NCBI RefSeq assembly: GCF_001644705.1
Contig: NZ_CP015137.1
Coordinates: 1,680,001 to 1,712,000, forward strand
Direction of reading: 5' to 3'
Origin: Dickeya solani IPO 2222
GTDB lineage: Bacteria; Pseudomonadota; Gammaproteobacteria; Enterobacterales; Enterobacteriaceae
Length of the DNA stretch: 32,000 bases
Position numbers and translations under genes: made by a program. Below are positions 11,849 through 16,677 of this stretch, piece after piece. The notes beneath the pieces are model-generated. The model was not told the DNA's origin, ran no database searches, and saw nothing but the letters and a program-made list of their open reading frames with translations. Every line of letters starts with the position of its first letter. The stretch's first letter is position 1.

Positions 11849-12991
11849 TTATTGAAAAGGCGTCTGATGTTCGACCAATTCCCACACCAGATAGCAGAGA
11901 AACGCACAACCGACCGCCACCAGCACCATCGTCATGCCTTCCGGCCCCATTCGGTCCATCATGAAGCCGATGCCAATCAGACCGGCAATGCCGCCAAGGG
12001 AGTCCATCATGGTGTAGCTCATATTGGCGGACATCTGCTGCTGCGGATGAAAGCGATCGCCGATCAACGACAAGCCGATGCTGTAAACGCCGCCCATACT
12101 GCCGCCCCAGACATACAGCAGCACCAGCGTGGTACCGTAATCGGCATACACCGCCAGCGCCAGAAACACCGCGCAAACCACCGAGCAGAAAATGCAAAAC
12201 ACCACGATCCACTGCCGGTTCACCCAGTCCGACAGCAGGCTGACCAGCATCCCGAGCGTGACGCTACCCAGCATGAACATGGTCATCAGCAACGATGCCC
12301 GCTCCTCCGTCAGCCCGTCGCTGATGCCATACAGCGTCAGGAAGTTGGGCAAGCCGTAGAAACTGACGCCGCCGACCAGCGCGGACACCAAAATGGCGCG
12401 GGCATGGCGGTAGACAAAGCGAAAACGCACCGCAGACACCATCCCCGACAGGGGATTGATGTGGGCAATCCACACCAACAGCAGCGCGCTCAGGCTGAGC
12501 AGCCCGGTCAGCCAGAACCGTTGCGACATGGAGACCTGCGTCAGTTGCAGCAATACCGGTCCCAGCGCCACCCCCAACGACAACGCGGCGGAAAACAATC
12601 CCATAACGATGCCGCGCCGTCGCAACGGCAGTTGATTCAGCCAGGTCTGCAACAGAATCAGCTGCATCCCGGTACACAGGCCGTACCCCAGAATGCTGAC
12701 CAGCCAGCCGGGGTAAAATTGCTGCCATGCCATACTGACGCACAGGCTGGCGCGCACGAGTACCAGCAGCAGCGTTGACCACATCAGTCCCATCCGCTGG
12801 ATGATGCGGCTCAATCGCTGGTGAAACAGCAGCACGCCAATGATTTCGCAAGCCATCGCCACGCCGATCCACAGATTGTTATGGCCCTGCAGGTTCATCA
12901 GCACCGGAATAGTGACGTAATTGATACCGGAAACCAGTTGGATCAAGAAAGTCTGCATGATTAACAGTATTGGCAGTAAACGCGGCATCAT
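11849..12991 (-). CDS. MFS transporter (12-TM type)
   Basis: 380-aa highly hydrophobic protein with the periodicity of many TM helices. Its start overlaps the upstream stop (ATGA at 12988-12991). Confidence 0.8.
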   Translation of the reverse strand: MMPRLLPILLIMQTFLIQLVSGINYVTIPVLMNLQGHNNLWIGVAMACEIIGVLLFHQRLSRIIQRMGLMWSTLLLVLVRASLCVSMAWQQFYPGWLVSILGYGLCTGMQLILLQTWLNQLPLRRRGIVMGLFSAALSLGVALGPVLLQLTQVSMSQRFWLTGLLSLSALLLVWIAHINPLSGMVSAVRFRFVYRHARAILVSALVGGVSFYGLPNFLTLYGISDGLTEERASLLMTMFMLGSVTLGMLVSLLSDWVNRQWIVVFCIFCSVVCAVFLALAVYADYGTTLVLLYVWGGSMGGVYSIGLSLIGDRFHPQQQMSANMSYTMMDSLGGIAGLIGIGFMMDRMGPEGMTMVLVAVGCAFLCYLVWELVEHQTPFQ

Positions 12992-14277
12992 AGCGCCTCC
13001 GGATATTTAGGCACCCGCCAGCTCAGCAACAGCTGGCCGCGCGTCACCTGACGGATCGTCACCTGTGCGGATTCCGCCTCCGCCTGCCAGTGCAGAAAAC
13101 GCCGCCACCAGTCCGGGTCCTCAGCCACAGCGCCGTCCGGCTCGCCACATCGCGTCAGCCGGACATCCAGTACCCAGTGCAGCAACGCCTCTTCCCTTTG
13201 GCTCACCTCGATCGTCAGCGGCTGCTGCGCCAGTTGCCGCCACAGTTGAAAACTCTGCTGCCAGAAACGCTGGCAGCGGTCTGGCGAGAAATGCGCCTCC
13301 AGCGCGTCGTTTATCGCCATCGCCAGCACCGAATCCGGGCAGGGAAGCAGCGACGGCGCCGCATTTCGCCACCACTCGTCCAGGCTTGCCTGCTGTTCCT
13401 GACTGCTCCCCGACGGCAAAGGGTCGGCTACCGTTGCCGCCAGATACGCCGGCGGCCGGTGATGGTCGCCGCCGCGCAGGAACAGCAACGGCAGCGGCCA
13501 GTCATACAACCGTTCCAGTTGCGAAGGCGATGCGGCATGCAGCAGCGCGTGGTAATCCTGTTCGCGGCTTGCTAACTGCACGCGGACCTGCTGGCTGCTG
13601 CGCCGCATCCACCACACCGCCAGCCCGACAACCAGCCCGAGAAACAGAATGGTGCTGATCGCTTTGCGAAATACCTGATTGAGCGCTTCCAGCCGCTGAT
13701 AAAAGCTCGACAGTTCCAGATCCATCGCCAGCACGCCGCGAAATTCGCCTTGCTGATCATAAAAAGGCGCGTAGGCGCTGATGAAAGTGCCCCATTCGTC
13801 CCGATACGGCTGGTCCGACACCGCGGTTTTGTGCTCCCGCAATGCGACAACCAGCTCCGACGGCGCATTGTCATACACCTGCATCAACGCCGGAGGCAGG
13901 TCCGGCAGGCCGTCGCCATCGTTGTCATTCTGCGGGCTGGGGTTCACCACAAACCGCACCTGGTCCTGATCCAACACTGTGGTATAGATGTAGCGCACAT
14001 CCTGCGAGGCCTGTCGAATGCGTTCCAGCTGCGCCGCCAGTTGCTGATACACCGGATCATCGCGCTCGGTGCGCGCGGTAATGTTCTGATGCAGCTCGCC
14101 AGACAGGGTGGAGGCCGCCGCCCGCACGTTCGACAGCAACCCGATTTTGATCTCCTGCTCCAGCGTACTGATCGACTTGTGGTAAACCATGTAGGTGGAG
14201 AAACCCAGCAGCCCGATAAAAATCAGGCTGGCGAACAGCGCTTCCGCCAGCGCCGCCCGTGAAGGTGAAGCGCTCAT
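12988..14277 (-). CDS. Two-TM membrane protein with a periplasmic Cache-like sensor domain and an uncharacterised Trp/Arg-rich cytoplasmic domain
   Basis: I place the start at ATG 14277, which overlaps the ELIC stop (CTATGAGCG). The layout is TM1 ([20 protein letters not shown]), then a Cache-like core ([20 protein letters not shown] ... [33 protein letters not shown]), then TM2 ([18 protein letters not shown]), then about 210 aa with no HisKA, HATPase, GGDEF, EAL, MCP or HD-GYP motif that I can recognise. Confidence 0.7.
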
Positions 14278-15305
14278 AGCGTAATCCCCCGTATAACCAG
14301 CACACCGCCAATCACCAGAAATCCCAGTGGAAAGGCCAGGCGGCAACGCTGTATCAACAGATCGTCCTCCACGCCGTTCGCCTGACGGTGGTGGGCGAAA
14401 ATAATCAGCAGGATCGCCGCGAAAATGCTGCCATACCCGGCGATGATCATCTGGTCGACGACCGTGGTGTAAGGCAGGCGCGGCAGAATATTACTGGTGT
14501 AAAACGCATAGGCCACCACGGTCAGCATCAGGGTGAACGAGGTTTGCAAACGCTCGGAGAAAGACTCCAGCCAGAACACGCTCCAGGACGCGGCAATAAT
14601 CAGCCCCAGCGGCAGAATAAAACTCCACAGGTAGTACGACGGGTTGCGAACGGCGTCTATCCGTACCGTAATGCGGGAGAACTCGTTCTGATTGGGCTGC
14701 ACGCTGCTCAGATGGTCGTAACGGATATCGCTGATGTGGGTCGTGGCTTTGCCCCGGATCCACCATTCGTCGATCTCTTCGTTATCAATATTTTCGGTGT
14801 AGACCTGTATATCGCTGAACCGCAGTTGCTGGTTGTTATAGGAAAAAGGCTCCAGCTCCAGCACGAACTGTTGACGATCAAATGGAAACAGCCGGAAGTC
14901 CATGTCATTGCTGAACGAGCCCAGAAAACGGGCGTTATAAATGACCCGCCCGTCGGGAAACAGCATCAGACGTTTATTGCCGGTGTCCGGGCTGCCGACC
15001 ACGTTGATGAATTCCAGCGCCGGCACCCATAATCCGTTATTGATCCACCGCTCGATCTGGTTGTTTTCGACAATCAATGGTTTATCGCCCGGCGTTTTAC
15101 GCGGTTTGCCGGTCCACTGCGCCACGATGTAGCCATCGACCTTGTAGGTCTGCTCCAGCGTGTTCACGCCATAGATCTTATTGATAAAAATGCTCACATT
15201 CACATCCACCGGGCGGGCATCCGCCGCGCTATCCGCCGGCGCGGACCACACCGGCAACCCCAGTAGCAACAACACAAGCCCGCAGCATGACCACAGAATA
15301 CGCAT
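14274..15305 (-). CDS. Prokaryotic pentameric (Cys-loop family) ligand-gated cation channel, ELIC
   Basis: The 343-aa product has a signal peptide and then [49 protein letters not shown]...FPFDRQQF...[59 protein letters not shown]. As far as I recall, this is essentially the published ELIC sequence from Erwinia chrysanthemi / Dickeya. Confidence 0.95.
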
Positions 15306-15306
15306 C

Positions 15307-16677
15307 TCATACCTCCCCGACCGACGGAAAAGCGCCAGGCTGACCCAGCGCCCACAACAGGTTATCCACCAGCGCCCGATGGCAATGCGGCAGCACCACC
15401 AGATGGCAGAAGAGCGCAGGCTTTCCCTGCACCATCAACTGTTCGCTGGATAACGAGAAACGCTCGATGATGGACGGACTGGGTGCGCTGAACTGCACCA
15501 TCAGCGAACCACTGAGTAGCGGTTGCAGAAATAACCGTTCCCGGCCGGGGTCAAGCCGTTCAAACAGGTATCGAAGTTGCTGGTAAGCGTAGCGCTGTAT
15601 CTCGTGACAGCGGCGGATCATCTCCCGCTGACCCGGTTCGCCGAGGCGACACAGCTGATTCCACAACACCACCGCAGACAAGCCGGGGCGCGACCCGGAC
15701 AAGGTTGCGTCTCCGCTGCCGATATAGTTCGGACGGCTGAGCGCCACCGCGCGATAGGGCTCCAATAGCATCACTACACCGCACGGCCACGGCATGCTCA
15801 GCCATTTGTACGGACTGGCGCAGATGGAGTGCAGCGACGCCGCCTGCGCATCAATCGCCAGCCGACGCCCTTCCGGTTCCGGCCAGAACGGCAGGTAACT
15901 GGACGACAGCGCACCATCCACATGTACCCAGTAACTGCGCTGCTGCGGCGTATTAGGCGGCAACCGCTGCTGTAGTTGCGTCGTAATCTGCAGCCAGTCG
16001 TCACAGGAACCGCTGAAGGTGGTGCCGCTGGTCAGGCAGACAATCACCGGCCGCCGGTAGCGATGAAAAAACATCACCAGTTGCAGCAGGCTCGCCACAT
16101 CGATTCGTCCGTCGTCGTCGCACGGCACCGCCCGCGGCCACACGCCGGCGTTGATGGGGCAACGCCCCAGCTGCGGCCCCGCTTCGGCGGGCGTCGCCAG
16201 TTGCAACACCCGGCAGGCTTTGGCCAGCGAATAGTGGCTGCGCTCGGAATACAGCACCACCGGCGCGTAACGCGCCTGCGTCATGGCCGGCCAGTGCGTG
16301 GTGCTCGCCCCGCACAGAAAATCGCGCGCATTCCACAACGCGAACAGATTGCCTTCCGTCGAGCCCATCGCGGTCAGGTATCCCCAGTACGGCGACGGCA
16401 GGTTCCACAGCTGGGCGTAATAATCCAGCACCGCCCGTTCAAAACGCTTGCTGTTAACCTGGTAAGCGCCGGGCTCCATGCTGTCGCCCAGATTCAGCAG
16501 ATTCATGTCCAGCAACGGGCGCAATCCGGCATCGAACTCACCCTGTTGGTTGGTCTGAAAACCGGCGAAATGCCGCCGCTGCTCTTCCATACGCGCGGTG
16601 TAGGTCCGCAAAATTCGCCTTCGCACCACATCGTGTACGCCTTCGGCCAAAATCGTTAATTCATCAATTGGTTGCAT
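15307..16677 (-). CDS. Group II pyridoxal-phosphate-dependent amino-acid decarboxylase (GadB/HDC-like)
   Basis: 456 aa. [11 protein letters not shown] and [21 protein letters not shown] align with GadB [21 protein letters not shown] (PLP-lysine motif, with His replaced by Tyr). Its stop lies 1 nt before the ELIC ATG, and a GGAGG RBS sits inside its 3' end. Confidence 0.85.

Follow-up and report, generated by a model that had tools for sequence, protein, structure and literature searches.

Known bacterial systems in which a cytoplasmic decarboxylase is encoded with a transporter include GadB-GadC, CadA-CadB, AdiA-AdiC, HdcA-HdcP and, with a transporter of the major facilitator superfamily (MFS), OxlT with Oxc; the Cad system also has a membrane sensor, CadC, which detects the product amine with its periplasmic domain. 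Here we consider a 32,000-nt stretch of Dickeya solani IPO 2222 (contig NZ_CP015137.1, positions 1,680,001-1,712,000; below, the window), in which a four-gene unit on the minus strand (11849-16677) encodes a decarboxylase, an MFS transporter, a membrane sensor and an orthologue of ELIC, a pentameric ligand-gated ion channel (pLGIC) that is inhibited by divalent cations. The unit shares with the Gad- and Cad-type systems a decarboxylase encoded with a transporter, but differs from them in several respects: the amino-acid systems of that type use APC-type transporters, while a dedicated MFS protein is found here, they contain no ligand-gated channel, and the sensor of the unit has neither a DNA-binding nor an active kinase output.

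ELIC has been a structural workhorse of Cys-loop receptor research since 2008, its natural ligand still being unknown and its physiological role in bacteria stated as unknown (Gonzalez-Gutierrez & Grosman 2015, PMC4485021). The same locus was considered in the sister species by Zimmermann & Dutzler (2011, PLoS Biol 9:e1001101, Fig. 6A), who noted a putative amino-acid decarboxylase beside ELIC "on the same operon", suggested that it processes the ligand and, relying on a glutamate decarboxylase annotation, proposed gamma-aminobutyric acid (GABA) as the likely natural ligand. The text of that article, in its available part, contains no comparative analysis and no discussion of the sensor or the transporter; here, the decarboxylase is assigned to a different clade, close to L-methionine decarboxylase (MetDC), and the unit proves both conserved and modular. 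A general precedent for a pLGIC beside an extracytoplasmic sensor comes from Tasneem et al. (2004, Genome Biol 6:R4), who found PBP-II or stand-alone Cache proteins encoded in bacterial pLGIC operons, with no decarboxylase or MFS partner and no Erwinia neighbourhood described; Jaiteh et al. (2016) do not treat the genomic context of pLGICs. The initial annotation of the stretch, made from the sequence alone, named no description of the Cache and MFS members or of the coupling pattern and allowed for an earlier mention of the neighbouring decarboxylase; the decarboxylase neighbour and the operon had already been published in the 2011 article. Relative to the literature searched, the conservation of the cassette, the nature of the partners and the family of the decarboxylase appear to be new.

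Layout and conservation of the four-gene unit

The unit comprises the following genes, taken from the list of open reading frames (ORFs):

15307-16677, minus strand: group II pyridoxal phosphate (PLP) decarboxylase, 456 amino acids
14274-15305, minus strand: pLGIC, the ELIC orthologue, 343 amino acids
12988-14277, minus strand: PDC-sensor protein, 429 amino acids from the ATG
11849-12991, minus strand: MFS transporter, 380 amino acids

At the junction of the decarboxylase and channel genes (...GGGGAGGTA TGA G ATG) the stop codon (15309-15307) is separated from the ATG (15305-15303) by a single spacer nucleotide (15306), and GGAGG is read 6 nt 5' of the channel ATG. The channel/sensor (CTATGAGC) and sensor/MFS (GGAGGCGCTATGATG) junctions are ATGA overlaps at 14277-14274 and 12991-12988, respectively, the latter with GGAGG 5 nt upstream. 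The ORF list and the junction reads thus reproduce exactly the four minus-strand genes, their coordinates, the spacer and the two overlaps as they were initially annotated. The sensor ORF can be extended in the mechanical list to a TTG at 14346, while the form annotated by NCBI has 429 amino acids (exact match). All four proteins are exact matches to Dickeya solani entries with consecutive accessions (ANE75111-ANE75114), and therefore the channel, which had been called simply ELIC, is a member of the ELIC family but, strictly, its D. solani orthologue, identical to ELIC from D. dadantii 3937 (ADN00343) in 335 of 343 positions (98%).

Promoter-like and terminator-like matches within the unit stay at the shuffle level (2 vs. 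2.8 expected and 9 vs. 6.9 +/- 2.9, respectively), and the four genes likely share one transcript. Four-base overlaps alone are weak evidence, being common in operons, but the arrangement as a whole is far beyond chance, since distant genera show the same gene order and, mostly, the same overlaps of -4. A literature search by locus tags found no expression data for genes of the unit. The four proteins gave no match in PADLOC, and a defence-system reading was rejected on these grounds; when PLSDB was searched by tblastn with the sensor and channel proteins, no match was found either, and no plasmid carriage was seen.

Conservation of the unit was analyzed in two scans. The sensor-anchored scan used 31 aligned homologues of the sensor protein and covered one genome per species. 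All 19 loci encoding a relative with at least 40% identity carry the cassette neighbourhood, in one of the following forms:

8 loci (Dickeya, four Vibrio species, two Celerinatantimonas): MetDC-like decarboxylase of the Dickeya type, channel, sensor and MFS transporter, in the same order
4 loci (two Flavobacteriaceae, two Cohaesibacter): decarboxylase passing the glutamate decarboxylase (GAD) model (395-436 bits vs. the cutoff of 380), channel, sensor and MFS transporter
1 locus (Flavobacteriaceae): channel, sensor and MFS transporter, no decarboxylase
1 locus (Celerinatantimonas): GAD-type decarboxylase, sensor and MFS transporter, no channel
5 loci (Riflebacteria/Ozemobacteraceae contigs): decarboxylase similar to histidine decarboxylase (HDC) and sensor, plus the MFS transporter where the contig continues, no channel

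Of the Riflebacteria enzymes, two full-length ones were scored, both passing the HDC model (406-450 bits, cutoff 305), and the Vibrio and Celerinatantimonas cassettes have overlaps of -4 at the same junctions as Dickeya. Relatives of the sensor domain with identity of 36% or less have none of the cassette partners nearby.

In the channel-anchored scan, metagenome contigs were searched with an alignment of cassette channels, yielding 16 ELIC-like genes with at least 36% identity. A group II decarboxylase gene is located upstream of 11 of these 16, immediately adjacent in ten cases and separated by one small gene in the eleventh (locus L083). Five of the eleven loci go on to the sensor (and the MFS transporter where the contig allows), while the other six are two-gene decarboxylase-channel units, overlapping or abutting, upstream of which an OEP-type outer-membrane protein is the only recognisable gene product. 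A twelfth locus, L096, has its 5' end cut off and carries the sensor and the MFS transporter downstream; the remaining ELIC-like genes are found on one long contig without a decarboxylase and on three contigs too short upstream to tell. None of the channels with 30% or less identity in the metagenome scan is accompanied by a decarboxylase.

Two more arrangements were reached through other members of the unit. A decarboxylase with 45% identity led to locus L127, with the order decarboxylase, Gcw_chp, channel, sensor, MFS transporter, and an MFS protein with 39% identity led to a cyanobacterial metagenome-assembled genome (MAG), in which HDC (347 bits), sensor and MFS transporter genes are followed by a very divergent LGIC-like gene. 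The decarboxylase is the hub of the cassette, since across Pseudomonadota, Bacteroidota, Riflebacteria and Cyanobacteriota it accompanies either the channel or the sensor-MFS pair, or both. Gene order is the same in Dickeya, Vibrio, Celerinatantimonas, Cohaesibacter and Flavobacteriaceae. Judging by the gene comparisons, it has apparently been swapped among three group II clades, while the channel, the sensor and the transporter stay orthologous, and the data best support a horizontally distributed, modular cassette built on an exchangeable decarboxylase. Tight coupling and co-inheritance of the four genes, both anticipated in the initial annotation, are thereby borne out, the genes being clearly co-inherited in other genomes.

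The LGIC-like protein of the Cyanobacteriota MAG (GCA_046047935.1, L129/L130, 1549-9481; 415 amino acids) is seen only by the NCBIfam model LGIC_1 (E 8e-9) and by BLASTP to ELIC (22%). In the same MAG, a glutamine-synthetase-like gene is located ~1.5 kb upstream of the HDC-sensor-MFS genes, its best assignment being gamma-glutamylputrescine synthetase (218 bits, below the cutoff). An outer-membrane Gcw_chp gene lies between the decarboxylase and channel genes in L127 (1677-2366) and L083 (5018-5743). Mutually homologous small secreted proteins are encoded upstream of the Flavobacteriaceae cassettes (L008, 6842-7588; L012, 6607-7410); their homology to Gcw_chp was considered and found no support (E 0.46). 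The presence of small secreted, probably outer-membrane proteins inside or just before some cassettes would fit a passage of metabolites through both membranes.

The decarboxylase and the channel

The decarboxylase passes PF00282 (57 bits vs. the cutoff of 27) and thus is a group II fold-type I PLP decarboxylase, as initially annotated; its likening to GadB does not hold, given the 22.8 bits on the GAD model TIGR01788 (cutoff 380) against 222 bits for MetDC. Its key residues are encoded at the following positions:

16552-16557, minus strand: Q41-T42
15805-15807, minus strand: K291, the PLP-binding lysine
15724-15726, minus strand: Y318, the catalytic tyrosine

The HDC model NF002748 is not passed either (192.7 bits vs. 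the cutoff of 305), and the specificity-site motif is GFQTNQ as opposed to GYPNNQ of true HDCs. Among sequences from the PDB, the enzyme ranks closest to L-methionine decarboxylase from Streptomyces sp. 590 (7cif, 222 bits, E 1e-64), followed by a plant serine decarboxylase (107 bits), a histidine decarboxylase (91 bits) and a glutamate decarboxylase (23 bits). When these enzymes are aligned together, its identity is 38% with MetDC, 27-30% with the Riflebacteria cassette HDCs and 16-19% with GAD-type cassette enzymes. Gln64, the Schiff-base lysine and Tyr421 of MetDC are all retained (Q41, K291 and Y318), K291 and Y318 being aligned with MetDC K394 and Y421. We take Gln64 to be the specificity determinant and Tyr421 the acid catalyst; the position of the specificity glutamine is confirmed by the PDB entry 7cig, since it differs from 7cif solely by Q64A.

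Compared with MetDC, its best solved relative, the Dickeya enzyme is ~100 residues shorter and carries SPYKW in place of SGHKW; K291 in this motif lines up with SGHK of GAD-type enzymes, in agreement with the alignment initially proposed. G[FY]QTNQ and SPYKW are conserved in all aligned decarboxylases with at least 40% identity (32 alignment rows; one truncated fragment keeps SPYKW only). Members of the SPYKW subclade all come from cassette-bearing taxa or metagenomes, while the wider MetDC-like clade mostly has Q-A and SGHKW. Hence the Dickeya decarboxylase seems to fall in the neutral-side-chain branch, in a separate subclade beside MetDC, and not among GADs. Since it belongs to the MetDC-like clade, the product to be expected, in all likelihood, is not GABA but a short primary amine whose side chain is neutral, of the alkyl or thioether type. 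In one source the D. solani enzyme carries the name "valine decarboxylase", and from this label we presume its kinship to VlmD. The latter likewise yields short primary amines, converting 2-aminobutyrate to n-propylamine and alanine to ethylamine, with other short amines also formed (PMC7794544).

The channel matches the ELIC crystal entries 2yn6/2vl0 in the PDB (E 1e-215) and PF02931 (59.9 bits), and has all features of ELIC, that is, the Neur_chan_LBD domain, the pore domain with four transmembrane (TM) segments, an intact agonist pocket and a signal peptide:

15243-15305, minus strand: signal peptide of the channel, amino acids 1-21

Channels of the cassettes are 37-50% identical to ELIC. 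Nonetheless, in all decarboxylase-linked channels, whatever the type of the enzyme, residues Y38, V40, E77, I79, N103, R105, E131, F133 and Y175 are invariant with the single exception of one V40T, and position 188 is always aromatic (Phe or Tyr); according to published mutagenesis, E77, I79, N103, E131, F133, Y175 and F188 are needed for ELIC activation. In channels without a detectable decarboxylase the pocket has diverged. Among the ELIC-like channels sampled, those with an ELIC-type pocket are, with one exception, accompanied by a decarboxylase. Since channels with the ELIC pocket almost always follow directly a group II decarboxylase gene, the proposal that the enzyme makes the ligand of the channel, put forward in the initial annotation, gains strong comparative support.

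As pocket residues do not co-vary with the decarboxylase type, the channel may be a generic detector of short primary amines. Such a pocket looks like a fit for the broad, low-affinity pharmacology of ELIC and for a ligand present at high local concentration, e.g. an excreted end product. The published agonists are short primary amines, the best ones being cysteamine (0.365 mM) and aminopropane (0.446 mM), while ethylamine is also active and GABA is weaker (2.4 mM; PMC3119659, in the available part of its text), and the assignment of the decarboxylase to the neutral-side-chain branch fits this pharmacology at the level of the chemical class.

The membrane partners and the proposed amine cycle

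The third protein, a bitopic membrane sensor, has the following parts in the AlphaFold2 model:

amino acids 14-32: TM1
13669-14181, minus strand: periplasmic PDC/sCache-like domain, amino acids ~33-203
amino acids 206-224: TM2
after TM2: helical DHp-like stalk
12991-13599, minus strand: degenerate CA-like domain, amino acids ~227-429

The model, built from 31 sequences (pLDDT 85.7), consists of TM1, a long helix, a PAS-like alpha/beta domain, TM2, a second long helix and a C-terminal alpha/beta domain. Foldseek matched it to whole kinases (WalK, YF1, ThkA, ZraS), to isolated CA domains (TMt ~0.55) and to the sCache chemoreceptor domain 8py0 (TMt 0.61). Of Pfam families, PF22673 alone is seen in the window protein, below the cutoff (19.5 vs. 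27 bits), while its relatives carry PF22673; the protein has no HisKA or HATPase_c match in Pfam, and the family profile has no match among PDB sequences, so that solved structures are linked to it only by the fold comparison. Distant homologues of the periplasmic domain are N-termini of HisKA+HATPase_c, receiver, GGDEF, MCP and SpoIIE proteins, and since they head real signalling proteins, the periplasmic region is a bona fide input domain. The Cache domain initially annotated here is therefore real, with the PDC/Cache-type fold placed between two TM helices.

The description of the protein as a plain Cache receptor, on the other hand, is not upheld, since it derives from a histidine kinase and has lost the kinase motifs. 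Two true kinases of this kind were aligned with the cassette sensors, identity being 30% along the stalk. The sensors lack the conserved H-box histidine, the N box and both glycine boxes (G1/G2), the Dickeya protein keeping a relic "DHHRPP", and the scan of window ORFs revealed no gene for a receiver domain. The protein is best described as a probable kinase-dead descendant of a sensor kinase; an active sensor histidine kinase was rejected, as neither the H-box histidine and the N/G1/G2 boxes nor, among the window ORFs scanned, a partner response regulator were found. Membrane sensors with a kinase-type cytoplasmic part are paired with transporters in DcuS-DctA, UhpB-UhpC and BceS-BceAB as well; unlike those pairs, the kinase motifs are lost here and no response regulator is seen among the window ORFs scanned.

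The sensor domain is the most conserved part of the protein (50-64% identity across classes and phyla, 41% in Riflebacteria) and is rich in invariant Tyr, Trp and Asp. An invariant loop (13900-13944, amino acids 112-126) holds a DxDxDGxxD motif resembling a calcium site, which is also present in the true kinase relatives of loci L020 and L022. This make-up would suit a cationic ligand, be it an amine, a metal ion or another one. The initially annotated amine binding by the Cache protein is not borne out, because the domain is conserved alike across decarboxylase types and its close relatives serve ordinary kinases far from any decarboxylase; that the sensor binds the amine is thus rather doubtful.

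The fourth protein belongs to the MFS (PF07690, 86 bits; AlphaFold2 model with 12 TM helices, pLDDT 88.7, pTM 0.88). Its family is narrow, with 47 database matches followed by a gap in E-values from 1e-55 to 5e-10, and is found in the same taxa as the sensor family; in every locus, its gene is directly 3' of the sensor gene, the start usually overlapping. No match was found among PDB sequences, and the assignment of a subfamily from the fold was rejected, as G6PT, SPNS2, FLVCR1, NorA, MdfA and VMAT1/2 all scored alike (TM-scores ~0.8). Arg80 (TM3) and Asp330 (TM11) are invariant and buried, and Glu49 (TM2) is nearly invariant; these residues are compatible with an amino-acid/amine or amine/proton mechanism. 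Together with the Gcw_chp gene inside the cassette in L127 and L083, they hint at a possible precursor/product antiport. It is probable that the transporter carries the amine and/or its precursor.

These components suggest a cassette for making, moving and feeling an amine, a reading to which we assign a probability of about 0.55. The cytoplasmic PLP decarboxylase, whose activity is indicated by homology, would remove CO2 from an amino acid, and the dedicated MFS protein would export the resulting amine, possibly in exchange for the precursor or protons. Given the synteny and the published pharmacology, the periplasmic amine, at sub-millimolar or millimolar concentration, might then open the ELIC-type cation channel, whose opening would partly short-circuit the membrane potential, so that the channel could shunt, or put a brake on, a decarboxylation cycle that is electrogenic and consumes protons or, alternatively, provide an electrical read-out of product build-up. 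The kinase-dead sensor, in turn, would most likely adjust the MFS protein or the nearby AraC-type regulator by protein contacts instead of phosphotransfer. That the decarboxylase product is the physiological agonist of the channel we consider quite probable. For the physiological purpose, a shunt or brake on the decarboxylation cycle is favoured, by analogy with the Gad and Cad systems, though this is the weakest step. The overall picture of the initial annotation is thus right in outline; it erred in the enzyme family, missed the 2011 precedent and was over-confident about the Cache ligand.

A more far-reaching version places ELIC at the ionotropic arm of an autocrine loop. The channel would be gated by the exported decarboxylation product of the cell itself (in Dickeya, not GABA but a short amine of the alkyl or thioether type), with the "transmitter" retuned by decarboxylase exchange and the carrier governed by the kinase-dead sensor. 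This version is tentative, and we would rather doubt it.

A number of points weigh against the amine cassette as proposed. The residue next to the specificity glutamine is Thr (T42) in the Dickeya decarboxylase, while it is Ala in MetDC, and in plant enzymes the residue at this place decides between serine and alanine (PMC11407765); given T42 and the enzyme's own SPYKW motif, the exact substrate does not seem to be readable from the sequence. An amine derived from methionine would be ambiguous as the agonist, since homocysteamine, butylamine and branched amines are weak on ELIC and 3-methylthiopropylamine is not among the agonists named in the available text of PMC3119659. The pocket does not co-vary with the decarboxylase: residue 91 (Arg or Gln) seemed promising as a correlate of the enzyme type with 14 sequences, but this candidate was rejected as the signal was lost with 28 (4R/8Q in GAD-type against 10R/1Q in Met-type cassettes). 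The sensor domain shows much the same degree of conservation whichever decarboxylase type the cassette contains and, given also the loop resembling a calcium site, its ligand may not be the amine. The fold search with the MFS model matched antiporters, amine transporters and sugar-phosphate carriers equally. A cation channel collapsing the membrane potential seems costly, and the purpose suggested for it is a guess. Finally, the link between the decarboxylase product and the channel is inferred from synteny and published pharmacology.

The earlier reading, in which the neighbour is a glutamate decarboxylase and GABA the natural ligand, within an acid-resistance system of the Gad type or a GABA system, was based by Zimmermann & Dutzler on the annotation available to them and agrees with the opening of ELIC by GABA at 2.4 mM, according to the available text. 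It is also consistent with the pairing of an ELIC-like channel with a decarboxylase passing the GAD model (395-436 bits vs. 380) in Flavobacteriaceae, Cohaesibacter and many metagenome contigs. The Dickeya/Vibrio enzyme, however, has 22.8 bits on this model and 16-19% identity to the GAD-type cassette enzymes, a solved GAD scores 23 bits against 222 bits for MetDC, and GABA is among the weaker ELIC agonists, which makes this reading quite unlikely. If, instead, the channel and the PDC sensor detected amines from the host or the environment (GABA, putrescine), with the decarboxylase and the MFS protein belonging to unrelated metabolism or detoxification, one would recall the chemoreceptor roles proposed for bacterial pLGICs by Tasneem et al., who noted operons with Cache or PBP proteins, the many plant- or alga-associated carriers (Dickeya, Vibrio spartinae/mangrovi/rhizosphaerae, Marinomonas spartinae, Celerinatantimonas) and the position of the Dickeya unit beside pectate lyase genes and a palindrome resembling a KdgR box. 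But the near-constant partner of the channel is an amine-producing enzyme, even in the overlapping two-gene units, which is hard to explain with an outside ligand, and we regard such sensing as unlikely.

Secondary metabolism, with the decarboxylase feeding a pathway as VlmD does in valanimycin formation and the membrane proteins acting in export or self-resistance, is brought to mind by the abundance of MetDC-like relatives in Streptomyces and Kitasatospora, by the "valine decarboxylase" label and by the PatG-like protease encoded nearby. This explanation is very unlikely: the cassette is not accompanied by further conserved biosynthetic enzymes, the PatG-like gene was inserted specifically in Dickeya and is missing from both L127 and L096, and the decarboxylase is replaceable by GAD- or HDC-type enzymes. 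The chance that the genes are merely adjacent, forming no functional unit, is practically negligible; although four-base overlaps are common in bacteria, such an explanation is already contradicted by the genome comparison, in which Pseudomonadota and Bacteroidota share the gene set and its order, while Riflebacteria and Cyanobacteriota have variants of it that are reduced or rearranged.

From a passing remark of 2011, the reassignment of the decarboxylase and the comparative data lead to a concrete route to the natural trigger of the channel, and cassettes elsewhere offer natural variants linked to GABA, histamine and alkylamines for comparison. Moreover, two uncharacterised families are brought to attention, the kinase-dead PDC sensor and the dedicated MFS protein, an apparent sensor-transporter pair tied to amine production. 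If true, the amine cassette would be the first physiological context for a bacterial pLGIC and a plausible prokaryotic precursor of the triad of transmitter synthesis, carrier and receptor. The animal aminergic toolkit (GAD, AADC and HDC enzymes, SLC18 carriers of the MFS, pLGIC receptors) draws on the same three superfamilies that are found here in one operon, and structural neighbours of the MFS model include VMAT1/2 along with NorA and FLVCR1; this likeness is at the superfamily level only, SLC18 not being singled out, and there is no vesicle and no second cell here.

Upstream region and neighbouring genes

Next to the unit and further along the window, the following features were identified:

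20116-21378: ORF of 420 amino acids after the pectate lyase genes, no Pfam match at 1e-5
18806-19930: second of two tandem pectate lyase (pel) genes
17136-18263: first of the tandem pectate lyase genes
16678-17135, minus strand: 5' intergenic region of the unit, common to the divergent pectate lyase gene, 458 bp
11750-11768, minus strand: terminator-like hairpin GCGGGC-N7-GTCCGC then ATTTTCT, ~80 nt past the MFS stop, from a consensus scan only
11012-11638, minus strand: GH19 gene (lysozyme/chitinase class I-like), PF00182 match, no signal peptide
8562-10526, minus strand: PatG-like subtilase of 654 amino acids with PatG_D and PatG_C (cyanobactin-macrocyclase-like)
6118-7323, minus strand: AraC-type regulator with a degenerate sigma54-type AAA+ domain and AAA_lid_14, by Pfam matches

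The intergenic region contains a promoter-like site (17035-17064), promoter-like matches in it being at the chance level. Two perfect TGAAA-N5-TTTCA palindromes, which we take to resemble the KdgR operator core, occur in the window (16963-16977 and 18573-18587) compared to 0.04 expected, each 160-230 nt upstream of a pel gene and the first one in the region shared with the decarboxylase operon, hinting at co-regulation of the unit with pectinolysis. The full KdgR consensus AAATGAAACANTGTTTCATTT has no match with up to 3 mismatches, only the core palindrome being found. The last ~100 nt before the decarboxylase ATG (16678-16780) are nearly invariant in D. solani, D. undicola and a metagenomic Dickeya (three close sequences), while the DNA just upstream of them is variable in the same three sequences and contains an indel; this segment may be a conserved leader or promoter element. 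The Rfam scan of 10500-17500 gave only chance-level matches and no family in the leader, and a riboswitch or leader RNA was rejected on the basis of these E-values.

The GH19 gene directly follows the MFS gene also in loci L001, L081, L096 and L127, with 50-57% identity in the distant ones. Homologues of the AraC-type regulator (36-38% identity) come after GH19 in L127 (5908-7911) and L096 (3183-5153), and the regulator is a candidate controller of the cassette, as judged from gene order. The unit, initially regarded as a self-contained module, is therefore not strictly so, being accompanied by GH19 and the regulator in three lineages. In Dickeya, the PatG-like subtilase gene is inserted between the two and is missing from the equivalent place in L127 and L096; it resides in DNA of 41-49% GC compared to ~57% around, with low-GC flanks at ~7000-8000 and 10000-11000. 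A PatG-like relative with 27% identity is encoded upstream of a Celerinatantimonas cassette (L018, 718-2928). The cassette together with the pel cluster is flanked by argD-pabA and ppiA ... trpS-dam-damX-aroB-aroK-hofQ. Directly upstream of the Vibrio cassettes of loci L004-L007 (~5550-7320), two conserved ORFs of ~240 and 330-360 amino acids, with no Pfam match, are read in the same direction as the cassette. The upstream ORF of Vibrio sp. MEBiC08052 (L002, 5451-6494) looks AraC-like instead, as judged by eye.

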